Source of the DNA: a virus
Length of the DNA stretch: 64,000 bases
Virus record (IMG/VR): IMGVR_UViG_3300044591_002420
Location: 32,001 to 96,000 of that record
Strand: one strand, 5' to 3'
Made by a program: the position numbers and the translations under genes. This document shows positions 6,079 through 15,820 of the stretch, in pieces. The notes under the pieces are model-generated. The model did not search any database, had not been told where the DNA came from, and saw only the letters and a list, made by a program, of their open reading frames with translations. Numbering within the stretch: position 1 is the stretch's first letter; every line of letters begins with the position of its first letter.

Positions 6079-6498
6079 ATGGAAATCTCTGACCTTGAAG
6101 ATAAAATTTCAGATCTAGATAATAAAATTGACGAACTTCGTTTTGAGCTTAACCAGCAAGTAGGATTTATTATTGGTGCTATATCTGAATTATCAGAGGA
6201 TTACATAACAACCGCGATCGTCAATAACTTATTAGCACATTCAATCCAAGAATATATCATTGATAATTATAAGAAATTTAGCAAAAAAATTGTTTCTACA
6301 ATTCTAGAATCAGAATATTTTTATGCCAATAATCTTTTCCGATATAATTATCATTCAAACATAACACACGATTCTAAAATATTAGAAGAATATCAATATT
6401 TGGAATACGTTCTAGACAATCCCAACTTAAGTCCATATAATAAAAAAGAAATTAAAAAACGTATAGCGAAACATAAAAGAGATCTCAAAAAACAATGA
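6079..6498 (+). CDS. Hypothetical coiled-coil protein
   Basis: ATG at 6079 (the ORF-track start at 6025 overlaps the tRNA). Confidence 0.65.
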   Translation: MEISDLEDKISDLDNKIDELRFELNQQVGFIIGAISELSEDYITTAIVNNLLAHSIQEYIIDNYKKFSKKIVSTILESEYFYANNLFRYNYHSNITHDSKILEEYQYLEYVLDNPNLSPYNKKEIKKRIAKHKRDLKKQ

Positions 6499-7262
6499 CT
6501 GAAGATGAATTGGGTAATAAGCTAAAACAACTAGAACAACAAGAAGCCGGAAGAAAAGCCGATCCTTATCTTCCTCTTATGGCAAGACTTGATGGTAACT
6601 GTTTTAGTAACTTTACAAGATCACTTGAAAGACCTTTTGATAAAAGATTTTGTGATCTTATGCTAGAAACAACAAAATACCTTGTTGAAGAAAGCGAAGC
6701 ATTATTGGGTTATTGTCAATCCGATGAGATTACTCTTTATTGGTATTTGGATAAACAAAACTTTTCTAATAGAGAATTTTGGTTTGGTGGAAAGTTTTAT
6801 AAAATTGCATCTATTTTATCATCAAAAGCTAGTTCTTTCTTCTCTGGTAATCTAGCTAATTATCTACCTGAGAAAGTCGGGGTCTATCCTGCATTTGATG
6901 CAAGAGTCTGGAGTGTTCCTGATCTTCATTGGGTTTATGAGAATTACTTATGGAGATTTAAAGATGCGAGAAAGAATTCTGTTTCCATGTATGCAAGAAA
7001 TTTCTTTTCTCATTCTCAACTTCATAAAAAATCTGGAGAGAAGATGAAAGAGATGCTAAGAGAAAATGGCACACCTTGGGAAGAATTGCCTGAATTTTTT
7101 AAGAGTGGCTCTTATGTTAAAAGACAGAGAATTTTGTTATCACTGGATGATTCTAGATGGACTGATGTTCCACTGCAATATAGACCAACAAAACCAATAG
7201 TAAGAACAGTTGTATCTCATTGGATCCCAGAAGAAACAGTAAATCCTAGCTGGTTTATGTGA
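6495..7262 (+). CDS. tRNA(His) guanylyltransferase / Thg1-like 3'-5' polymerase
   Basis: RLDG..FS.FT, QSDEI, FDAR, WR..DA.KNS motifs. Confidence 0.9.
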   Translation: MTEDELGNKLKQLEQQEAGRKADPYLPLMARLDGNCFSNFTRSLERPFDKRFCDLMLETTKYLVEESEALLGYCQSDEITLYWYLDKQNFSNREFWFGGKFYKIASILSSKASSFFSGNLANYLPEKVGVYPAFDARVWSVPDLHWVYENYLWRFKDARKNSVSMYARNFFSHSQLHKKSGEKMKEMLRENGTPWEELPEFFKSGSYVKRQRILLSLDDSRWTDVPLQYRPTKPIVRTVVSHWIPEETVNPSWFM

Positions 7263-7711: not shown

Positions 7712-8326
7712 ATGATCTACACTGAAGACCAAGTAACAGAAATCGTCAAGCGAGTTATTAAAGAACTCCAGCCTGATATCTCGGGTTTATCGTCGAATGA
7801 AAAATATAAATTGGCTAGCGATCCTCAAACTTCAACAAAAGTTCTAGAACTTTTGGCAACAAATAATTGTATTCATTCTCGCTGTGGGGTAGCAGAAAAT
7901 CCAAACACACCTACAAAAACTCTAGAATCTCTTGCGATAGATAATCATTCTTGGGTTCGTTGGCGTGTAGCAAAAAATCTAAACACACCACCAAAAGCCC
8001 TAGAAATTCTAGCGACCGATAAGTATTCTCATGTTCGTTTGGGGGTAGCATATAATCCAAACACTCCACCAAAATCTCTAGAACTTCTAGTGACCGATAA
8101 TGAGTGGGATGTCCTTAAAGCTGTAGTACAAAATCCAAACGCAACACAAAAAACACTATTGATTTTGTCGGCAACAAATGATTACATGATTCAGCACTAT
8201 GTAGAAAAACATCCAAACTATGATCCACCCGAAACAATAACAATCACTAAAAAACAAAAACAAGCACTAAAAGATCTAATCATTTCCACACAAAATCCTA
8301 TTCTAAAGGATATTAATCTAGGTTAA
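7712..8326 (+). CDS. LRV-repeat protein, subfamily with alternative N- and C-caps
   Basis: Repeats plus tail HPNY...TKKQKQALKDLI shared with 15368, 26683, 51882. Confidence 0.88.
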   Translation: MIYTEDQVTEIVKRVIKELQPDISGLSSNEKYKLASDPQTSTKVLELLATNNCIHSRCGVAENPNTPTKTLESLAIDNHSWVRWRVAKNLNTPPKALEILATDKYSHVRLGVAYNPNTPPKSLELLVTDNEWDVLKAVVQNPNATQKTLLILSATNDYMIQHYVEKHPNYDPPETITITKKQKQALKDLIISTQNPILKDINLG

Positions 8327-9282: not shown

Positions 9283-9885
9283 ATGACGATCACTACAGAA
9301 CAAGTTAAGACTCTCAGAGAGAAAACCGGAGCCGGAATGATGCTCTGTAAAGAAGCACTCAAATCTTCTTCAGGAGATCAAGAAGGTGCAATACTTTGGC
9401 TCAGACAAAAAGGAATTACACTAGCCGATGGTAAGATCGGTAGATCTACTACCGAAGGTGCAATCGGAACTTATATTCATACTGGCAGCCGAGTTGGTGT
9501 GATGGTTGAGATTCTTTGTGAGACAGATTTTGTTGCAAAGACACCGGAATTTCAAGAACTGATTCGTAACATTGGAATGCAGATTGCGGCATGTCCTAAT
9601 GTTCAAGGTATCAGTCTAGATGATATTCCTCAGAGTTTTATTGATTCTGAAACTGCTCTTGAAATGAGTAAAGCTGATCTGGCCAATAAACCAGAAGCAA
9701 TTCGTCAAAAGATTGTAGAAGGAAGAGTTGGTAAGAAACTCAAAGAAGTTACGCTTATGAGCCAACCTTATGCTAAAGATTCTACCATTACAGTTGAAAC
9801 ATTAATCAAGAACTTTTCTGCTCAATTTGGTGAGAATATTGTTGTTAGACGCTTTGTGCGTTTTGTACTTGGTGAGGATCTATGA
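9283..9885 (+). CDS. tsf: Translation elongation factor Ts (short, cyanobacterial-type)
   Basis: VKTLREKTGAGMMLCKEAL, CETDFVA, RFVRFVLGE; 200 aa. Confidence 0.96.
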   Translation: MTITTEQVKTLREKTGAGMMLCKEALKSSSGDQEGAILWLRQKGITLADGKIGRSTTEGAIGTYIHTGSRVGVMVEILCETDFVAKTPEFQELIRNIGMQIAACPNVQGISLDDIPQSFIDSETALEMSKADLANKPEAIRQKIVEGRVGKKLKEVTLMSQPYAKDSTITVETLIKNFSAQFGENIVVRRFVRFVLGEDL

Positions 9886-10074: not shown

Positions 10075-10473
10075 ATGGGAACTAGAGCTGATTTTTACGT
10101 TGGAGTTGGACCTAACGCCGAATGGTTAGGAAGTGTTGCATGGGATGGTTATGAATGGCAAGTAAAACCAGATTGCTCTTTAATGAAAGCGAAAACTGAA
10201 GAAGAATTTCGTAGTGCTGTTAAGTTAATTTCAGAAAAACGAGATGATTGGACATCAGTAGAACAAGGTTGGCCGTGGCCATGGAACGATAGTTTTACTA
10301 CTGATAGAACCTATGCATTTGTTGATGGAAAAACTCAAGACTATAATTGGGGCTGTTTGCCAGTGGATGACGAAGATGAAGACACTGTAAAAACTGTAGA
10401 GTGGCCAAATATGGAATCAAGAAAAAATGTCAATTATGGTAATCGTTCGGGACTTCTTATTTTTTCTGTGTGA
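10075..10473 (+). CDS. Hypothetical phage protein
   Basis: MGTRADFYVG... Trp-rich ORF. Confidence 0.7.
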   Translation: MGTRADFYVGVGPNAEWLGSVAWDGYEWQVKPDCSLMKAKTEEEFRSAVKLISEKRDDWTSVEQGWPWPWNDSFTTDRTYAFVDGKTQDYNWGCLPVDDEDEDTVKTVEWPNMESRKNVNYGNRSGLLIFSV

Positions 10474-10491
10474 TACTCTATCTTGTTTCCA

Positions 10492-10547
10492 GCCAATCCT
10501 GAAACCGTCCACTGCCTCTTGACAAACTAGCTCCTCCATGCTAGATT
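10492..10547 (+). promoter_or_regulatory. Sigma70-type promoter of the vWA/ncRNA operon, with upstream palindromic motif
   Basis: TTGACA 10519-10524, 17 bp, TG-c-TAGATT ending 10547; motif right arm AACCGTC at 10503-10509. Confidence 0.75.
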
Positions 10548-10558
10548 GAACAAGTTCA

Positions 10559-10622
10559 AAGATGAGACAGCAATTCCCTTCGCTCTTTCCTTTTAAGAAA
10601 ACCAAGCCAAAAAACTCATCTT
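10559..10622 (+). ncRNA. CAGCA-module hairpin H1 with tRNA-Lys(UUU)-like loop
   Basis: Stem AAGATGAG/CTCATCTT then ACAGCAA; inner TTTC-CTTTTAA-GAAA. Confidence 0.65.
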
Positions 10623-10643
10623 GTTTAATCACCCAAACTAATT

Positions 10644-10853
10644 ATGAATCCAACCCAATCACTAGAGCCTCATCAACAACGAATGATTGATGAGCATTCC
10701 GAACTTTCTCAACGTCTTTCTGATCTTCGCCGCTTTTTTGATAATCCTTATTTTAAAGATCTACCTGAAGCCGAACGAGTGCGCATGAAAGCTCAAGAGC
10801 TTTTTATGACTGGTTACGAAAACATCTTGAGCCAAAGAATCGCCGCTATCTGA
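10644..10853 (+). CDS. Small helical phage protein (crAss001_48-like family)
   Basis: HQQRMIDEHSEL..L..F...F..L...E...Q...M..Y..IL..RI pattern. Confidence 0.6.
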   Translation: MNPTQSLEPHQQRMIDEHSELSQRLSDLRRFFDNPYFKDLPEAERVRMKAQELFMTGYENILSQRIAAI

Positions 10854-10888
10854 ATTAAGTTAATTCCGCACCGATAACACACATTAAC

Positions 10889-12364
10889 TTGGAGAATACC
10901 ATGACTTTTATGAACGCTCTTTCTACCGAAATGAATAATACGATCACCGCAAATGGTGCAAAGGCATACGAATCAACTCAAAACGAATGTCTTGATCTCT
11001 ACGGTTCCATTGGTGCTTGTCGTAATAATCTCACTCTAGCAGAGCGTCTATTCTTTGCGGCATACGAACAACATCCAGAAACGGCAGTACGAATTCTGTT
11101 CTATTCTCGTGATATTCGCGGAGCAAGTCAAGGTGAACGCGCAGTCTTCCGAGCACTGATGCCTAAACTTGCTCATAAGAATCCAAGAATCGCAACACGT
11201 TTGGTGTCTTTGATTCCTTATTATGGTCGCTGGGATGATCTTCTGTGTCTAGAGAATACTCCAGTTTGGAATGAAGTCTTGAAAACCATTGAAACTCAAC
11301 TGAAGACGGATATGAGTAGCGATAAGACTTCGCTGCTTGCCAAATGGCTTCCTTCTATCAATGCATCATCTAAAGATAGTAAGCGACTGGGTAGGCTGAT
11401 CGCAGCTCATATGGGTTGGTCTGAACGTCAATATCGCAAAAATCTTTCTTCACTTCGGGCTAAGATCAAGATTGTTGAAACTCCGATGTGTGCGAAAGAA
11501 TGGAGTGTTATTGATTACGAGCATCTTCCTTCTCGTGCAGCATTCATGTATCGCAAGGCATTTAAGAAGCATGATGAGACTCGTTATTCAGATTATCTCT
11601 CACGAGTAGAGAAAGGTGAAGCTAAGATCAATGCGGGAACACTGTATCCTTATGATATTGTTAATAAGTATCTTTTTCAAGGTGCTCGTAATGATAAGAC
11701 TCTTGAACTTCAATGGAATGCCTTGCCCAATTACATGGAAGATCTAGAATTTAATGGTCTTGTTGTTGCCGATGTTTCTGGTTCTATGATGAATAATAGT
11801 GGTATGCCAATGGCAGTTTCCATCTCGCTTGCAATGTATATTGCTGAGCGTAATCCATCTAAGATCTGGAAGAATAAATTTCTGACTTTCTCTCAAGCTC
11901 CAAAACTTCAAACTATTCTAGGCAACAACATTGAAGAAAAAATTCGTTATCTACAAGGAGCTGAATGGGGTATGAATACTGATCTGATTGCAGTCTTTAA
12001 TACCATTCTGAAAGCTGCAACTGAGAATAATGTCGCTGCTAAAGACATGCCCCAAAAACTGATTATTGTTTCCGATATGCAATTTGATGTGGCATGTAGA
12101 TCCAATAAGCGTACTAACTTTGAGCAAATTCAAAAAATGTATCGGAAGTCTGGTTATGAGATGCCTCAGCTTATTTTCTGGAATGTAAACGCAAGTGCTA
12201 ATGTTCCGATTCAAGCTGATGACACTGGAACCGCATTAGTTTCTGGTTGTAGTCCTGCTATTCTGAAGTCTGTTCTGAGCGGTAAAATCGTATCTCCTGT
12301 GGATGTTATGATGGATAACCTTTATGTAGAACGTTATGCTCCGATTGGTGAAGTTTTTGCCTGA
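10889..12364 (+). CDS. Ro60/TROVE-like helical repeat + vWA protein (DUF2828-like)
   Basis: T.NGA..Y.ST, RDIRG..GER, YGRWDDL, LLAKWLPS, MIDAS DVSGSM, TFS, SDMQFD, IFWNV. Confidence 0.85.
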   Translation: MENTMTFMNALSTEMNNTITANGAKAYESTQNECLDLYGSIGACRNNLTLAERLFFAAYEQHPETAVRILFYSRDIRGASQGERAVFRALMPKLAHKNPRIATRLVSLIPYYGRWDDLLCLENTPVWNEVLKTIETQLKTDMSSDKTSLLAKWLPSINASSKDSKRLGRLIAAHMGWSERQYRKNLSSLRAKIKIVETPMCAKEWSVIDYEHLPSRAAFMYRKAFKKHDETRYSDYLSRVEKGEAKINAGTLYPYDIVNKYLFQGARNDKTLELQWNALPNYMEDLEFNGLVVADVSGSMMNNSGMPMAVSISLAMYIAERNPSKIWKNKFLTFSQAPKLQTILGNNIEEKIRYLQGAEWGMNTDLIAVFNTILKAATENNVAAKDMPQKLIIVSDMQFDVACRSNKRTNFEQIQKMYRKSGYEMPQLIFWNVNASANVPIQADDTGTALVSGCSPAILKSVLSGKIVSPVDVMMDNLYVERYAPIGEVFA

Positions 12365-12377
12365 TTGATAAATTCTT

Positions 12378-12427
12378 AAGATGGTTCAGCAATTCTCCTA
12401 TGTTTTGGGTACATAAAAGACCATCTT
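12378..12427 (+). ncRNA. CAGCA-module hairpin H2 with tRNA-Pro(UGG)-like loop
   Basis: Stem AAGATGGT/ACCATCTT, TCAGCAA; inner TATGT-TTTGGGT-ACATA. Confidence 0.7.
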
Positions 12428-12434
12428 GTTTAAC

Positions 12435-12550
12435 GGGCGGGTAGCTCAGTTGGTAGAGCAGTAGAGCACTTAAAACAAATCTAGTTTAGATTTTAACAGC
12501 ATTATAAATACAAAATCTCCGGGTCCTAGGTTCAAGTCCTAGTCCGCCCA
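12435..12550 (+). ncRNA. tRNA-like RNA T1 with permuted CAGCA module replacing the anticodon loop
   Basis: Acceptor GGGCGGG/TCCGCCC-A, D arm GCTC/GAGC, T arm CTAGG-TTCAAGT-CCTAG; ~50-nt anticodon region containing AAATCTA-GTT-TAGATTT-TAACAGCA. Confidence 0.75.
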
Positions 12551-12551
12551 T

Positions 12552-12598
12552 TAGATGATTCAGCAATTCTTTCTTTGCTAGGAACAAAAAATCATCTA
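12552..12598 (+). ncRNA. CAGCA-module hairpin H3
   Basis: Stem TAGATGATT/AATCATCTA, CAGCAA; inner TTCT-TTGCTA-GGAA. Confidence 0.7.
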
Positions 12599-12627
12599 GT
12601 CTTTTCATATTTTTATACTCAAACACA

Positions 12628-12681
12628 AAGATAGTTCAGCAAATTTAACACGAATGCCATCATGTTCATCACAACTATCTT
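12628..12681 (+). ncRNA. CAGCA-module hairpin H4
   Basis: Stem AAGATAGTT/AACTATCTT, CAGCAA; inner AACACGA-ATGCCA-TCATGTT. Confidence 0.7.
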
Positions 12682-12688
12682 GTTTACT

Positions 12689-12803
12689 GTCGTGTTCGTC
12701 TAACTTGATAGGACGCCTATAAAACAAATCTCGTTGAGATTTTAACAGCATTACAAATTTCCTTGTCCCGGAGGTAATCTAGGTTCAAATCCTAGACACG
12801 GCG
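12689..12803 (+). ncRNA. tRNA-Asp(GUC)-like RNA T2 interrupted by ~42-nt permuted CAGCA module
   Basis: Acceptor GTCGTGT/ACACGGC-G, T arm CTAGG-TTCAAAT-CCTAG; removing the insert restores CCTCC-TTGTCCC-GGAGG. Confidence 0.75.
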
Positions 12804-12804
12804 T

Positions 12805-12851
12805 TAGATGATTCAGCATTTATTTCTCTGCTAAGAAAACAAAATCATCTA
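12805..12851 (+). ncRNA. CAGCA-module hairpin H5 containing tRNA-Ser(GCU)-like loop sequence
   Basis: Stem TAGATGATT/AATCATCTA, CAGCAT; inner TTTCT-CTGCTA-AGAAA. Confidence 0.7.
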
Positions 12852-12878
12852 GTTAAACAACTCTTTCAACTCTCAAAA

Positions 12879-13124
12879 ATGTTCACTATCATCGTTGATT
12901 TACTCTCATCACTAATTGTATCAGTTATTCTTTTCTTTAGTGGCTTAAAATTGGGAGCTGATGCTATGAGGGACATGACTGTTATCTACTGTAATGAAAA
13001 TCCCACAATTTGTCAACAAGAATACAAGAATACGAAATCTCAGTATCCAAATCTTAATTTTACTGTAGAAGCTCCTTCTATTGGTCAAGAAAAACCCAAA
13101 GTGAACATTATTGATACAAAATAA
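12879..13124 (+). CDS. Small membrane-anchored hypothetical protein within the RNA array
   Basis: Hydrophobic N-terminal 25 aa. Confidence 0.65.
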   Translation: MFTIIVDLLSSLIVSVILFFSGLKLGADAMRDMTVIYCNENPTICQQEYKNTKSQYPNLNFTVEAPSIGQEKPKVNIIDTK

Positions 13125-13129
13125 CCAAC

Positions 13130-13203
13130 AGCGGGCGAGTGTAACGGTAGTCACGTCGGGCTCATAACCCGGAGGAATATGGGTTCAATTCCCAGGTCCG
13201 CCA
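13130..13203 (+). tRNA. tRNA-Met(CAU), initiator-type
   Basis: Anticodon arm TCGGG-CTCATAA-CCCGG (three G-C pairs), 1:72 mismatch (A/C), T loop TTCAATT. Confidence 0.88.
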
Positions 13204-13204
13204 T

Positions 13205-13261
13205 TAGATGATTCAGCAATTTCAAAACTTTCTTATTGGTTTAGAAAACAAAAATCATCTA
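13205..13261 (+). ncRNA. CAGCA-module hairpin H6
   Basis: Stem TAGATGATT/AATCATCTA, CAGCAA; inner TTTCT-TATTGGTTT-AGAAA. Confidence 0.7.
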
Positions 13262-13268
13262 GCTCATT

Positions 13269-13388
13269 AGAAGAGTAGCCCAATTGGTTGAGGCGAGCTT
13301 AGAAACAAAAAGCATCTTGTAAAAGATGATTCAGCATTAAAAATTCTAAGGAAAAGCTTTGATGTTGGTTCAAATCCAGCCTCTTCTA
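13269..13388 (+). ncRNA. tRNA-like RNA T3 with permuted CAGCA module in extended anticodon arm
   Basis: Acceptor AGAAGAG/CTCTTCT-A, D stem GCC/GGC, T arm GTTGG-TTCAAAT-CCAGC; arm CTTAGAA..CATCTT-GTAA-AAGATG-ATTCAGCA..TTCTAAG. Confidence 0.75.
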
Positions 13389-13463
13389 TCTGGATAAATA
13401 ATATCCAACAGACTTTAACACAACAAAAACGATCACTTAGTCTGTGTGATCTCAAGGAAACAA

Positions 13464-14183
13464 ATGATGTACTCAAATCAATTTGCCGCAACAATCAAGG
13501 TAAACAATAAAATTCTCCGGGAGTTTGGAGACACTGTTTATCTTCCCTTCGGTTCCGAATATCAAATTCGTCTTAAAAATCTCAATACAACAAGAGCCAA
13601 AGTAACAGTTGAAATTGACGGACAAAATGTTACTGATGGTGGTCTTGTTATTGATTCATTCCAAACTGTTGATCTAGAACGATTCATTCGTAATGGTAAT
13701 CTTTCCGAAGGAAATCGCTTTAAATTTATTGAACGAACTTCTAAAATTGAAGATCATCGTGGAATTAAACTAGAAGATGGTTTGATTACAATTCGTTATG
13801 AGTATGAGATGTCTTATGCTCCTTTATACGATTTTAAATATCCAAAAGCACAAAAAAATAATTTTATTAATGAATGTTCATATCGCAGTATGAACATCAA
13901 TTCGGGACCAACAGCTAAGTTAACCTCTCAGACTGAAACTGGAATTACTGTAGAGGGTTCCAAGAGTAATCAAAAATTTAATACTACTTCTTGGAGAGGA
14001 TCAATTGGTGGCTCTCATGTGATGGTTATTAAACTTTTGGGTGAAACAAAAGAGAACAAAAAAGTAAGAGAACCTGTTACCATCAAGACTAAACTAGAGT
14101 GTAAAACTTGCGGAACAACTAATCCTGTAACCTCAAAGTTCTGTTCTGAGTGTGGAACTTCTTTAGAGATTGTAGGTGGATAA
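13464..14183 (+). CDS. Beta-rich protein with C-terminal zinc ribbon
   Basis: LPFGSEYQIRLKN N-terminal domain; CKTCG...FCSECG; AAGGA upstream of ATG 13464. Confidence 0.75.
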   Translation: MMYSNQFAATIKVNNKILREFGDTVYLPFGSEYQIRLKNLNTTRAKVTVEIDGQNVTDGGLVIDSFQTVDLERFIRNGNLSEGNRFKFIERTSKIEDHRGIKLEDGLITIRYEYEMSYAPLYDFKYPKAQKNNFINECSYRSMNINSGPTAKLTSQTETGITVEGSKSNQKFNTTSWRGSIGGSHVMVIKLLGETKENKKVREPVTIKTKLECKTCGTTNPVTSKFCSECGTSLEIVGG

Positions 14184-14189
14184 GAAACC

Positions 14190-14215
14190 GGCACCCAGAA
14201 ATCATTCCGGGTGCC
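14190..14215 (+). terminator. GC-rich hairpin closing the vWA/ncRNA operon
   Basis: GGCACCCAGAA-ATCA-TTCCGGGTGCC; weak U tract. Confidence 0.4.
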
Positions 14216-14248: not shown

Positions 14249-14764
14249 ATGAATCAACAGCGCCAAGATTTTTACCACAAGCTCAACGAAAGTCTTGAAG
14301 AAGATAGAAAATATTTTCTTGACATTTTGACTAGAACCGATAATTCTGCTAAACTACTTCAATGGATTATTGATAATAATATCAATCCCTATGCAGTGCT
14401 TCCATTTTATCTCGCGGGATCTTATTATGGTTTTGAAGCTTTTATCAGTCTTTACACATCTCTCACTTATCATGAGAAACATGCAGAATTCACTTATCTT
14501 AATATCAAAAGAAAGAATCCAAATGGACACGAATTTGAACTTGGACCTAAAGTCGTTCTAAGACATCCATCCGATTCAGATTTTAAAGAAGGTGTTATAC
14601 GAGATCTAGATTTAAAAGAAGTAGATTCTTTTGATGGTGAAGTATTCGTTTATGAGTTTGAGATTCTTAAGAGTTTAGATGAATTTATTGAAACTTTTAT
14701 CCGAGTAGAAAAAGAATATCTAAATCTCTATGAAGAGATGGATCATATTATTGGACAATTTTAG
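14249..14764 (+). CDS. Hypothetical protein
   Basis: 171-aa ATG ORF. Confidence 0.7.
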   Translation: MNQQRQDFYHKLNESLEEDRKYFLDILTRTDNSAKLLQWIIDNNINPYAVLPFYLAGSYYGFEAFISLYTSLTYHEKHAEFTYLNIKRKNPNGHEFELGPKVVLRHPSDSDFKEGVIRDLDLKEVDSFDGEVFVYEFEILKSLDEFIETFIRVEKEYLNLYEEMDHIIGQF

Positions 14765-15383
14765 CATGAATCAAAAACCTTCATGGGCAGAATCTCCAGA
14801 CTGGGCTGTGTGTCTAGGATTCGCTTTTTCTGGTGATGATTACGACTTCTATAGTGAAATATACGGCGAAGAAAATGTAAAGGTAATGAAGCGGCGGTGG
14901 TGTTATTTTTCTTATCCGAATCCGATAGGCATTGTAAATCTTGAATATCGTCCAGAAGATAATATTATCAAAAAATATATGGTATGGTTATGGGCAATAG
15001 AAGGCATCGGAATTCTAATCCCCGTTGAATCTCCCCTTTCAAAGATAAAACTTCAAAATTATTATAATCTCTTAATTCCTTCATTAAAAAGAGTTGATGT
15101 TTACACAGAATCTCAATTCAAAGAACAAAAATTTTCTTGGTCAAAAAATACACCGGTAAAGGTAGAATACGCTGATTATAATTGTCTGACTGATAATCTT
15201 CAGAGACAATTTACCAAACTAACAAAAGAATATAATACTTTATCCAACAGACTTTCTAATCCTAATTTTGAAGAAAAAGCACCAAAAGATATCGTCTTAA
15301 AATGTCAAACTGATTATGAAAGAGTCAAAGCCGAACTAATCCTTATTGAAAGTAAATTAAAACTATCATGCAAATCTCACTAG
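14730..15383 (+). CDS. Hypothetical protein with C-terminal ValRS tRNA-binding-arm-like coiled coil
   Basis: LSNRLSNPNFEEKAPKDIV resembles the ValRS C-terminal KLxNxxFxxKAPxxVV. Confidence 0.6.
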   Translation: MKRWIILLDNFSMNQKPSWAESPDWAVCLGFAFSGDDYDFYSEIYGEENVKVMKRRWCYFSYPNPIGIVNLEYRPEDNIIKKYMVWLWAIEGIGILIPVESPLSKIKLQNYYNLLIPSLKRVDVYTESQFKEQKFSWSKNTPVKVEYADYNCLTDNLQRQFTKLTKEYNTLSNRLSNPNFEEKAPKDIVLKCQTDYERVKAELILIESKLKLSCKSH

Positions 15384-15820
15384 AAGAACTTCAAGAAATC
15401 TTTGATAAAGTTCTTACCGAAGTAAAAGTAAAAAAATGTTGCTCCGAATCAGATAAAATTTTACTATCCAAAGATCCCAAAACACCAGAAGAAACACTAC
15501 TAATCTTAGCGACCGATGTGAATCCTGATGTTCGTTATTTTGTAGCACAAAATCCCAATACTCCACCAAAAGCCCTTGAACAACTAGCCATAGATGAATA
15601 TCATGGTGTTCGTTGTTGTGTAGCAAATAATCCAAATACTCCACCAAAAGTCTTAGAAATTCTAGCGACCGATGAGGAATATTGTGTTCGTTGGAGAGTA
15701 GAACTAAATCCAAACCATAACCCAAAAGAGACTCTTGAAGTAACTAAACAACAAAAAGAAGCTCTTAAGAAATTGATTGATGCTAGCCAAGATGTATCAC
15801 TTAAATCTATCAATCTTTAA
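15368..15820 (+). CDS. LRV-repeat protein (alternative-cap subfamily)
   Basis: Repeats plus tail VTKQQKEALKKLIDASQ. Confidence 0.88.
   Translation: MQISLEELQEIFDKVLTEVKVKKCCSESDKILLSKDPKTPEETLLILATDVNPDVRYFVAQNPNTPPKALEQLAIDEYHGVRCCVANNPNTPPKVLEILATDEEYCVRWRVELNPNHNPKETLEVTKQQKEALKKLIDASQDVSLKSINL

Follow-up and report, generated by a model that had tools for sequence, protein, structure and literature searches.

Does a phage gene of the DUF2828/DUF7788 type encode the protein half of a Ro60/Y-RNA-like ribonucleoprotein, and do the structured repeats around it supply the RNA half? The question is raised by a cyanophage locus at 10519–14215 on the + strand of the window, that is, the whole 64,000-nt stretch of viral DNA analysed here. 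This locus contains a promoter, the DUF2828/DUF7788 gene, six hairpin units (H1–H6), a leader unit (Hx), three tRNA-like units (T1–T3), and a tRNA-Met gene. We consider it probable that the protein and the RNAs form a Ro60/Y-RNA-like ribonucleoprotein in which recognition relies on a motif of its own and the RNAs come in three architectures.

The central gene (10901–12364, + strand; ATG 10901) encodes a protein of 487 amino acids. Its reading frame is open from TTG 10889, and the resulting 491-aa ORF matched the Pfam families DUF7788 (2e-52) and DUF2828 (1.1e-35), of which the latter is the helical part and the former the vWA domain with an intact MIDAS motif. The protein was assigned to phrog_850 (1.1e-144); its homologues are 483–499 aa long. 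Residues D291, S293, S295, T360, and D392 (MIDAS) as well as several Arg/Lys residues are invariant across 61 sequences. A Foldseek search of pdb with the AF2 model (pLDDT 92.8, pTM 0.91) gave 13 matches at E ≤ 0.001, and the 12 listed were all Ro60/TROVE proteins, most with TM values of 0.52–0.60. They include 1yvr (E 1e-7, TMq 0.58), 2i91 (0.60), and the Ro60 of phage phiLo (9kop, 9l5y). Beyond the Ro60/TROVE entries, the search retrieved isolated vWA domains only; Ro60 alone matched over the whole length. In the model, the 487 residues form a ring of HEAT repeats plus a vWA/MIDAS domain, the Ro60 arrangement, in agreement with the Ro60-like identity proposed in the initial annotation. By sequence, no TROVE membership was detected: Pfam yielded only DUF2828 and DUF7788, and a profile search against PDB sequences reached TROVE at E 1.4. 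The protein family carries the existing annotation 'Ro-like RNA-binding protein'.

The sigma-70-type promoter with an extended -10 TG at 10519–10547 (TTGACA-17-TAGATT, 10 of 12) was the best + strand match in a promoter scan of the region, as initially annotated, while promoter-like sites in the region overall were not above chance (13 found vs 12.5 expected). Transcription would start a few nucleotides 5' of H1. A similar promoter is located 5' of the hairpin array of phage B3. Three further ORFs lie on the same strand: a crAss001_48-like ORF of 69 aa (10644–10853; PF21825, Pfam 1.3e-18), an 81-aa TM ORF with a hydrophobic N-terminus (12879–13124, from the ORF list), and a 245-aa ORF with a C-terminal zinc ribbon identified by domain search (13446–14183), oriented like the rest of the unit. 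The 69-aa ORF was found outside the window only in the 95%-identical relative L121, one of 17 cyanophage loci searched; the 81-aa ORF has no family match and was found elsewhere in L121 only; and the zinc-ribbon ORF was found elsewhere only in L121 and L122. To judge from this distribution, the 69-aa, TM, and zinc-ribbon ORFs are not conserved parts of the system. A G+C-rich hairpin at 14190–14215 (GGCACCCAGAAATCATTCCGGGTGCC), read from the sequence on the + strand and scored on the − strand, probably marks where the transcription unit ends; on the + strand, its T run is weak. The only tRNA called by ARAGORN at 10519–14215 was tRNA-Met(CAU) (13130–13203, + strand; Rfam tRNA 38.7 bits), which is initiator-like, with an A1/C72 mismatch and three G-C pairs adjoining the anticodon loop as read from the sequence. 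The window also contains a Thg1-like gene, 3.6 kb upstream.

All RNAs of the locus except tRNA-Met share one module, a covarying helix of 7–11 bp (P1) adjoining C(A/C)GCA(A/U). The 64-kb window contains AGATNNNNCAGCA seven times, exclusively on the + strand at 10560–13336, against 0.50 expected; none of 100 shuffles reached this number. With a 5-nt spacer allowed, T1 and T2 also match, and a looser regular expression gave 15 matches in the whole 125,003-bp contig, nine of them inside the window at 10560–13324. The initial annotation had listed nine units sharing the module, all of which were recovered, but had missed a tenth, degenerate one (CCGCA, 10855–10892). It had placed CAGCA on the 3' side of the helix; the pentamer is indeed unpaired beside the helix, but lies 3' of the AGAT-bearing strand. 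This strand forms the 5' arm of H units and, in T units, the 3' arm of a capped hairpin. The junction strand reads (U/A)C(A/U)GCAA(U)U, and the opposite strand has an A-rich junction (AAAAC-like). The sequence of P1 varies freely while pairing is always kept, with 125 different 5' arms among 146 distinct units near the genes. The stem covariation noted earlier was confirmed in 17 cyanophage units, where P1 is 96.1% paired vs 77.9% in shuffles (0 of 500 reach 96.1%), five of nine pairs change on both sides, and slid registers are 28–46% paired. The module occurs in three architectures, namely a hairpin with P1, a tRNA-like body with capped P1, and, in phages other than this one, an open P1 around a permuted YrlA-like tRNA domain. 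Rfam 15 contains no family for it, consistent with the earlier failure to recognise it as a named RNA.

In the H units, all on the + strand, the RNA's own 5' and 3' ends close P1 and enclose a small variable hairpin. H1 (10559–10622; model R1 58.5 bits, E 2.7e-9) lies at the 5' end of the predicted transcript, its P1 (AAGATGAG/CTCATCTT) followed by A-CAGCAA. Downstream of the gene are H2 (12377–12428; TAAGATGGTT/GACCATCTTG; 53.6 bits, z −2.97), H3 (12551–12600; 63.9 bits, E 2.1e-10, z −3.05), H4 (12628–12681; AAGATAGTT/AACTATCTT; 40.8 bits), H5 with the variant CAGCAT (12804–12853; 59.8 bits), and H6 (13204–13262; 60.0 bits, z −4.09). H3 directly follows the discriminator of T1, H5 the 3' end of T2, and H6 the discriminator of tRNA-Met; these contacts had been described with a constant one-base spacer, but the spacing is 0–1 nt. 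R1, a cyanophage model that fails to reach distant members (only two weak matches outside cyanophages, E 0.026 and 0.53), detected exactly H1–H6 in the window (E ≤ 1.2e-5) and nothing else. The proposed helix formed in the MFE folds of all six hairpins (z −1.0 to −4.1). The degenerate leader unit Hx (10855–10892, + strand; TTAAGTTAAT-T-CCGCA...ATTAACTTGG) runs with its 3' arm into the GGAG Shine-Dalgarno (SD) sequence of the Ro-like gene and is orthologous to the second upstream unit in relatives L123–L127 (2944–3002), which carries CAGCAA. The stability of leader units was not above that of shuffles (z +0.84, −0.26 for Hx, and +1.60).

A loop of 3–4 nt caps P1 in the T units, where this helix projects from a tRNA-like body at the position of the anticodon arm. 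T1 (12435–12550, + strand) has acceptor, D, and T arms and matches the Rfam tRNA model with 44.1 bits and a 52-nt insert; the capped module AAATCTA-GTT-TAGATTT plus TAACAGCA replaces the anticodon loop. T3 (13269–13388, + strand; 36.0 bits) displays an extended stem, AGCUU/AAGCU, an internal loop (ACAAAAAG / AUUCAGCAUUAAAAA), and the capped P1 CATCTT-GTAA-AAGATG; the extended stem covaries with that in L122 (AGCGU/ACGCU). Both exceed the Rfam tRNA gathering score of 29 bits and possess about 50 nt in place of an anticodon loop. T2 (12689–12803, + strand), whose D arm is degenerate, had no match among the Rfam families at E ≤ 10; it aligns with other T units, and its fold contains an acceptor stem and a T arm. 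Here, AAATCTC-GTT-GAGATTT plus TAACAGCA splits the stem CCU^CC/GGAGG, which carries the loop UUGUCCC (GUC, atypical C37). RNAalifold analysis of nine T units revealed acceptor, D, capped-module, and T helices, with compensatory changes in 16 of 22 pairs.

An anticodon-like loop is kept in about 60% of 106 distinct T types. U33 and R37 occur together in 64 of these types vs 8–46 in shifted registers, and 54 such loops comprise 24 different triplets. Retention of this loop would suit a new protein-dependent intervening sequence in phage tRNA genes, in which the module marks a piece that is cut out, the ends are rejoined (e.g., by RtcB or an RNA ligase) to give ordinary tRNAs, and the free H units are excised-like or decoy copies. 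The perfect 5-bp stem ACG^GC/GCCGU split by the insert in cyanophage examples points the same way, as do genes for an RtcB-type 'tRNA splicing ligase' or an RNA ligase near some homologues (AG20 and GAP32). The split-stem parse, however, is valid in only 28 of the 106 T types, and there is no anticodon loop that could be restored in T1, T3, or the open YrlA-like forms. Certain T-type anticodons are also present in an ordinary tRNA of the same locus (Pro-UGG in L125, for example). The system has no conserved endonuclease, no bulge-helix-bulge geometry can be read from the sequences, and, to our knowledge, the Ro fold has no catalytic role. We regard tRNA interruption as quite improbable.

The module flanks homologous genes in cyanophages, in phages of Listeria, Bacillus, Staphylococcus, Enterococcus, Campylobacter, and Mycobacterium, and also in Felix-like phages, KVP40, Aeh1, and GAP32. 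Since the descriptors require pairing, the numbers of helices can be interpreted only in comparison with strand, shuffle, and background controls; the real background of the hairpin descriptor is 1.36 matches per 10 kb of strand. Within 700-nt flanks at 75 distinct IMG/VR loci (protein identity 38–83%), hairpin-type matches numbered 118 on the gene strand vs 8 on the opposite one (shuffles: mean 5.8, maximum 11), T-type matches 68 vs 0 (background: 1 in 1.03 Mb × 2 strands), and CAGCAA hexamers 223 vs 26. At least one hairpin-type match was present at 53 of the 75 loci and one or both unit types at 63. The remaining 12 had no canonical unit, and four of five such loci inspected carry the variant CUGCAA.

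Many near-identical copies packed into a short stretch, together with the A+T-richness of the units, could also indicate a DNA-level feature (mobile-element remnants, recombination sites, or chance repeats) with no RNA function. This explanation is already disfavoured by the strict strand specificity of the hairpin- and T-type counts, by compensatory helix changes alongside a conserved single-stranded motif, and by persistence of the module in phages from five or more host phyla, with no more than 35–45% identity between their proteins; we consider it extremely improbable.

Units were present in all 10 named distant phages examined: beside the gene in AG20, Lumos, wV8, Bc136, NCTC12673, 6ec, and EA1, and, for KVP40, Aeh1, and GAP32, far away in tRNA clusters on the same strand as the gene. 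The 75.6 kb of Lumos contain only two ACAGCAAW sites, both beside the gene. In the reverse direction, 117 loci were chosen solely by the pattern ACAGCAA-N24-44-T-loop; the gene was found in 34 of them, always on the motif strand. Eight further records with the RNA pattern were searched whole, and the gene was located elsewhere in six and absent from two, one of which is rated complete. Most of the loci selected on the RNA pattern alone encode the gene. The co-occurrence with DUF2828-type genes, which the initial annotation proposed to look for, is strong and reciprocal across distant phages.

Nearly all of these loci are tRNA-rich, and the units lie between tRNAs and abut their ends. This is what would be seen if the modules acted in cis in phage tRNA operons, as elements for processing, stability, or punctuation that are bound by some host RNase or other factor and not by the DUF2828 protein, with the gene a frequent resident of tRNA clusters; the units distant from the gene in KVP40, GAP32, and Aeh1 fit as well. 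Yet the tRNA-bearing phages T4, T5, rV5, Bxz1, and S-PM2, which have no DUF2828 homologue, gave one pattern match altogether, and units directly adjoin the gene in Lumos, 6ec, AG20, and EA1. Modules inside tRNA-like bodies and YrlA-like domains would be left unexplained. A purely cis-acting role thus seems unlikely to us. An association with tRNA clusters is common to the gene and the RNAs and could inflate their linkage; the five control phages speak against this, but they are few.

The recurrence of the gene–RNA pairing in many unrelated phages suggests a family of Y-RNA-like partners in phages that has yet to be described. In a Ro60/Y-RNA-like ribonucleoprotein of this kind, a single early transcript from the promoter at 10519 would carry the gene and ten RNAs; a search for RNA sequencing runs that contain this DNA listed none. 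Because the RNAs abut tRNA or tRNA-like ends, they might be released by tRNA end-processing, that is, by RNase P and 3' trimming. The protein would bind P1 and the CAGCAA junction, and the variable part (hairpin or tRNA-like body) may be the adaptor through which the ring reaches tRNA-handling or RNA-decay/repair enzymes or a factor of host defence. The leader units H1 and SD-abutting Hx could allow the protein to repress its own translation; such autoregulation is only weakly supported, because the SD-abutting unit was seen in cyanophages and KVP40 only.

The label of a 'new RNP system' given initially needs tempering with regard to the protein, whose family is already annotated as Ro-like, and in view of a 2024 preprint. 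According to the accessible text of that source, Bas63 gp130 has a Ro60 fold, is encoded upstream of tRNA genes, and counters Ppl defence, a function attributed to the protein alone; the authors of this PhageMaP study guessed that the 'tRNA genes' near gp130 may be Y RNAs (10.1101/2024.10.10.617714). From Felixounavirus synteny with wV8 we infer that gp130 is a homologue of the present family. No RNA motif, structure, or distribution is defined in that text of the preprint.

The phage protein resembles Ro60 (TROVE2) and bacterial Rsr in its helical-repeat ring and vWA/MIDAS domain but, unlike these, lacks TROVE membership by sequence. As with YrlA (RF02553), the putative partner RNAs are encoded beside the gene on the same strand, and many phage units contain a tRNA-like domain. 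The proposed Y-RNA and tRNA mimicry is reflected in the inner domains of Lumos and EA1 units, which match YrlA with 36–48 bits (E 2e-4 to 4e-9); over its stem, the YrlA model is unmatched in them, the scores of phage units are below the gathering threshold, and the window yields no match. The stem–internal loop–stem arrangement with a short purine-rich single-stranded motif recalls Y RNAs and phiLo Yrl1/Yrl2, but the phage motif is C(A/U)GCAA, in contrast to GNCGAAN0-1G/CGAA in YrlA and phiLo Yrl RNAs, and the minimal hairpin forms are only about 50 nt long. Like tRNA (RF00005), T1 and T3 pass the gathering score, and acceptor, D, and T arms covary; unlike tRNA, the T units have 45–55 or so extra nucleotides bearing the module at the anticodon arm, are not called by ARAGORN, and in T1 and T3 are devoid of an anticodon. 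Embedding of the units in tRNA arrays is shared with phage tRNA clusters, and the presence of RNA-repair genes nearby, in some phages, is shared with Ro60/Y-RNA systems. Different from the latter are the number of units in each genome, which is high and reaches ten here, and, compared to YrlA, a second topology, in which a tRNA-like body has its own 5'/3' acceptor ends, the module forms a capped extra arm, and many representatives keep an anticodon-like loop.

The window derives from a 125-kb viral contig, which among named phages is closest to the freshwater Synechococcus phages B3 and B23 (Kyanoviridae; 245 kb; 65% protein identity). The locus lies on the plus strand and begins with a strong sigma-70-type promoter (10519–10547), followed by the hairpin-type RNA unit H1, a crAss001_48-like ORF of 69 aa, a degenerate leader unit, Hx (10855–10892), and the Ro-like gene (10901–12364; 487 aa). 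The 3' arm of Hx enters the GGAG ahead of the ATG at 10901. The region 3' of the gene contains, in this order, H2, T1, H3, H4, T2, and H5 (H, hairpin-type; T, tRNA-like), an 81-aa ORF (TM ORF), tRNA-Met(CAU), H6, T3, a zinc-ribbon ORF, and, as the last element, a G+C-rich hairpin (14190–14215). The 5' ends of H3, H5, and H6 fall 0–1 nt past a discriminator base. The crAss001_48-like, TM, and zinc-ribbon ORFs were rejected as parts of the system because they are limited to the closest one or two relatives.

The motif AGATN4CAGCA occurs in seven copies, all on the plus strand and all in this locus, against 0.5 expected, so that the array recognized in the initial annotation stands. The whole contig contains 15 loose matches, nine of them here if the copies with a 5-nt spacer in T1 and T2 are counted. 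The nine units originally described are real, but Hx adds a tenth; CAGCA is indeed present beside the helix, but H and T units place it differently with respect to the arms.

Several further plus-strand ORFs were identified around this locus. These include a 255-aa ORF (6495–7262) matching Thg1, the tRNA-His guanylyltransferase (PF04446, 1.3e-24), an EF-Ts homologue (9283–9885; PF00889, 2.9e-30), and a protein of 217 aa (14730–15383) in which the tRNA-binding arm of valyl-tRNA synthetase was recognized (PF10458, 8e-9). Two ORFs with leucine-rich-repeat-variant (LRV) repeats (7712–8326 and 15368–15820; PF01816, 1.8e-18 and 1.2e-15) flank the locus. Thg1-like proteins repair tRNA 5' ends, and the Thg1-like ORF fits a theme of tRNA maintenance around the Ro-like locus.

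In H units, the two ends of the unit pair into a helix of 7–11 bp, P1. The order of elements is the 5' arm, (U)UCAGCA(A/U)UU, a small variable hairpin, an A-rich strand (AAAACAA-like), and the 3' arm. T units are a circular permutation of these parts, namely the A-rich strand, P1 capped by GUU or GUAA, and then UAACAGCAUU, with a tRNA-like body in place of the inner hairpin. Across 17 cyanophage units, 96.1% of P1 cells are paired, compared with 77.9% in shuffles (none of 500 reached this value); both sides change in five of nine pairs, and slid registers pair in 28–46%. P1 therefore covaries. In nine T units, RNAalifold recovered acceptor, D, T, and capped-module helices, and 16 of 22 pairs show compensatory changes. 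One module, with the conserved motif (A)C(A/U)GCAA(U), is common to three architectures: minimal hairpins, open units enclosing a permuted, YrlA-like tRNA domain, and capped units projecting from a tRNA-like body that is otherwise ordinary. In its U variant, CUGCAA(U/A), the motif resembles the anticodon loop of tRNA-Cys(GCA), while the commoner CAGCAA lacks U33. One T unit of phage B3 (locus L001, 5869–5978) is annotated as 'tRNA-Pseudo-GCA' in the B3 record.

The Ro-like protein contains DUF7788 (2e-52) and DUF2828 (1.1e-35) and no other Pfam family; in PHROGs it belongs to phrog_850, 'RNA-binding protein'. The AlphaFold (AF2) model, built from a 61-sequence alignment, has a pLDDT of 92.8. 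Foldseek retrieved 13 matches at E ≤ 0.001; the 12 listed are all Ro60/TROVE proteins, aligned over the whole length. Full-length matches (1yvr, 2i91, 2nvo, 9kop, and 9l5y) have E-values of 1e-7 to 3e-6 and TMq of 0.39–0.60, and the targets include Xenopus Ro60 (E 1e-7, TM 0.58–0.60), Deinococcus Rsr, human Ro60, and Ro60 of Thermus phage phiLo. Matches below the Ro60/TROVE entries are isolated vWA domains only. The MIDAS motif (D291-x-S293-x-S295, T360, and D392) is invariant in the 61-sequence alignment. The predicted structure thus corresponds to the Ro60/TROVE fold, in which a MIDAS-containing vWA domain closes a ring of HEAT-like helical repeats; this agrees with the initial designation of this gene product as a Ro-like vWA protein. 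Ro60/TROVE proteins contact Y RNA at a conserved helix or bulge and accommodate the ends of misfolded RNAs in the central hole. A phmmer search against PDB sequences gave no match, a profile search against the same sequences scored TROVE chains at E 1.4 only, and the Pfam TROVE domain was not matched; a sequence-level tie to TROVE was therefore dropped. Accordingly, on the evidence of the model, the protein is classified as a structural homologue and not as a Pfam TROVE member.

Homologues of the Ro-like protein occur in 696 of 50,697 phage records. At least 7,413 proteins were found at E ≤ 1e-10 among 8,000 candidates scored, and clustering at 50% identity gave 6,903 clusters with E ≤ 0.001. 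One homologue, in an 86-kb complete viral record (G003:C1:73014-74420, the record behind locus L229), has six in-frame TGA codons and no other stops, which suggests that this phage reads TGA as sense.

The same pairing of gene and RNA units was detected in all nine cyanophage loci, with two units before the gene and three to eight after it, all on the gene strand. The helix sequences vary (AGATCAG, AGTTAAT, AGGTCTC, AGGTGGT, and others). We consider the presence of the module in far more distant phages, where the helix is followed by 1–3 nt and then by ACAGCAAUUAC, to be the decisive result. Three units each are located between a promoter and the Ro-like gene in Listeria phage AG20, just 3' of the gene in Mycobacterium phage Lumos, 3' of the gene in Staphylococcus phage 6ec, and 5' of it in Enterococcus phage EA1. 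Campylobacter phage NCTC12673 has two units 5' of the gene, and the Felix-like phage wV8 has four among tRNAs 3' of it. Bacillus phage vB_BcoS-136 has seven units in its locus, ahead of the gene and among tRNAs; a motif scan of the whole record found two more sites immediately 5' of these, for a total of nine in 2.9 kb. The 75.6 kb of Lumos contain only two ACAGCAAW sites, both in units beside the gene. As is typical of Y RNAs, the units are within a few kb of the Ro-like gene and on the same strand, with the exception of KVP40, Aeh1, and GAP32, in which little is found beside the gene and T-type and open units occur on the gene's strand in remote tRNA clusters.

Other structured RNAs were also noted in these regions. 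A cyanobacterial-type permuted tmRNA (RF01851, 116 bits; ARAGORN tag ANKIVAFSRQTALV) in a related cyanophage contig (L125, 2537–2788; L143 is the same contig) adjoins, just upstream, two leader units of the Ro-like gene. A ROOL-like RNA (RF03087, 90.1 bits, just below the gathering score of 99.1) is located in AG20 among tRNAs, ~1 kb upstream of the Ro-like gene (L131, 1461–2012). Two viral loci, L031 (3702–3759, minus strand) and L091 (5666–5722, minus strand), have one strong cyanophage-type H unit each (59 bits), with no Ro-like gene inside the 8–13 kb stretches covered.

The covariance model R1 covers the cyanophage units only; units of distant phages were counted using purpose-made descriptors with controls. 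The linkage was assessed in 80 IMG/VR loci from a protein profile search, of which 75 were distinct. The hairpin descriptor (CAGCAA; a helix of ≥ 7 bp with no more than one G-U; 0–4 nt from arm to motif; partner within 260 nt) was matched in the 700-nt flanks of these 75 loci 118 times on the gene strand and 8 times on the other strand; 50 dinucleotide shuffles gave a mean of 5.8 and a maximum of 11. At least one hairpin-type unit was present in 53 of the 75 loci. For comparison, 115 viral loci lacking the gene yielded 1.36 matches per 10 kb of strand, roughly one-eighth of the density beside the gene. The T-type descriptor (a capped hairpin of ≥ 6 bp, followed by C[AU]GCA[AU] and, within 90 nt, a T-loop) gave 68 matches on the gene strand, none on the other, and one in a background of 1.03 Mb x 2 strands. 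Either unit type was found in 63 of the 75 loci, and four of five remaining loci inspected have the CUGCAA variant 3' of the gene. By both descriptors, the module is enriched next to homologous genes, as the initial annotation had anticipated.

The reverse search, from RNA to gene, used 117 loci chosen solely by the pattern ACAGCAA-N24-44-GGTTCRANTCC. The gene was present in 34 of these, in all 34 on the motif's strand, and six of eight other records with the pattern, searched whole, have the gene elsewhere. The phages T4, T5, rV5, Bxz1, and S-PM2, which served as controls lacking the Ro-like gene (Bxz1 carries a true TROVE Ro), contain one pattern match in all. Linkage of the module is therefore with the gene rather than with tRNA clusters alone, the control being limited to these five genomes.

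T types often have an anticodon hairpin between the module and the T arm. Among 106 distinct T types, parsed blind to loop identity, U33 is present in 70, a purine at position 37 in 92, and both in 64, compared with 8–46 for both in shifted registers; the loops have the consensus A-U-N-N-N-A-A, with 24 different triplets among 54. Several cyanophage T types have a perfect stem, ACG^GC/GCCGU, that is interrupted by the module, with the loops AUUGUAA, AUUGGGG, AUUCUAA, and AUGUUAA. T2 has the stem CCU^CC/GGAGG and the loop UUGUCCC with C37, while T1 and T3 have no such loop. Some T-type anticodons duplicate those of ordinary tRNAs in the same locus. T types may decode, be spliced, or serve as decoys. 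The anticodon-like loops lend some weight to an improbable alternative explanation of T types, in which the module marks an intervening sequence to be excised from phage tRNA genes. They also feed a different reading, which we regard as rather improbable: T types may be 'handle-tagged' tRNAs, tRNA bodies often provided with a genuine anticodon loop, in which an extra arm would clamp the Ro-like ring next to the anticodon stem and the RNP would act at the anticodon. Such an RNP could engage anticodon nucleases and further host defences that target tRNAs, as a decoy or trap; alternatively, it could escort damaged tRNAs, of the phage or of the host, to repair enzymes (Thg1-like proteins, RtcB, RNA ligases). 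The T and H RNAs in a genome would then serve as adaptors that can replace one another. If true, this would be a counter-defence principle used by phages across hundreds of genera.

For the system as a whole, a Ro-type RNP with putative RNA binding is the best-supported reading. The ring protein is predicted to recognize P1 and the CAGCAA junction. The RNAs would arise from the same early transcript as the gene and be freed by tRNA end-processing, since H3, H5, and H6 abut discriminators and units elsewhere are located between tRNAs; the variable domain would act as an adaptor. Among the 24 sequencing runs listed as containing this DNA, none is recorded as RNA. Pointers to the function of the particle are the RtcB or RNA-ligase genes adjoining some homologues, and the Thg1-like gene, EF-Ts, and ValRS-arm-like protein encoded in the window. 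The homologue from phage LeBron is described as toxic when overexpressed. For gp130 of phage Bas63, a Ro60-fold protein encoded upstream of the tRNA block of this Felix-like phage, a role in countering the Ppl defence is described (10.1101/2024.10.10.617714). Autoregulation via leader units is retained as a secondary proposal of no general scope; it may operate in cyanophages and KVP40, in which the 3' arm of the leader unit reaches the SD or AUG, and leader-unit thermodynamics gave no support for it.

Animals and bacteria are known to have Ro60/Y RNA particles, as are a few phages, there with true TROVE proteins; the role of the particles in bacteria is only partly understood. The Ro fold has a second and far more widespread branch in phages, and the units described here are the likely RNA partners of that branch, with a motif that is simple and searchable and with three architectures. 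The Ro-like nature of the protein family is already present in annotations, and the Ro60 fold of a phage protein, with nearby 'tRNAs' as possible Y RNAs, has been voiced in a preprint (10.1101/2024.10.10.617714). No description of the module, its three architectures, their distribution, or the anticodon-bearing forms was found in Rfam 15 or in the literature searched, which covered few subscription papers and no supplements (the supplementary tables of Chen 2014 and of the PhageMaP preprint may bear on this). The system is present in tractable phages, including Felix O1-like coliphages, KVP40 and nt-1, Bacillus subtilis phages, and cluster L mycobacteriophages of M. smegmatis; the role of a Ro-like RNP in infection, including the reported link to counter-defence, is therefore directly testable.

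The Rfam 15 survey of the window yielded tRNA matches only, even at E ≤ 10, so the module corresponds to no named family there, as initially supposed; YrlA (RF02553) gave no match in 10400–13500 at this threshold. T1 and T3 pass the gathering score of the tRNA family (RF00005) and have no anticodon loop. Units of 21 related loci were matched only by tRNA and, below threshold, by YrlA; the other matches in these loci (ROOL-like RNA and tmRNA) lie outside units. Many phage annotations of 'tRNA-OTHER' or pseudo-tRNAs are probably members of this RNA family. The units differ from YrlA in that none reaches its gathering score of 69 bits (35.8–47.8 bits overall; 39 bits in Lumos and 36–48 bits in EA1). 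They also carry the motif C(A/U)GCAA, as opposed to the Ro-binding motif GNCGAAN0-1G (CGAA) located near the 5' end of YrlA in its protein-binding stem (Chen 2014); the Ro-binding RNA motif given in the phiLo paper is CGAA. In Lumos and EA1, the YrlA model aligns to the interior of open units, at the T arm, an acceptor-like hairpin, and the D arm, and its protein-binding stem is mismatched. T1–T3 and the units of EA1 and Lumos share with Y RNA/YrlA a tRNA-like domain with T and D arms.
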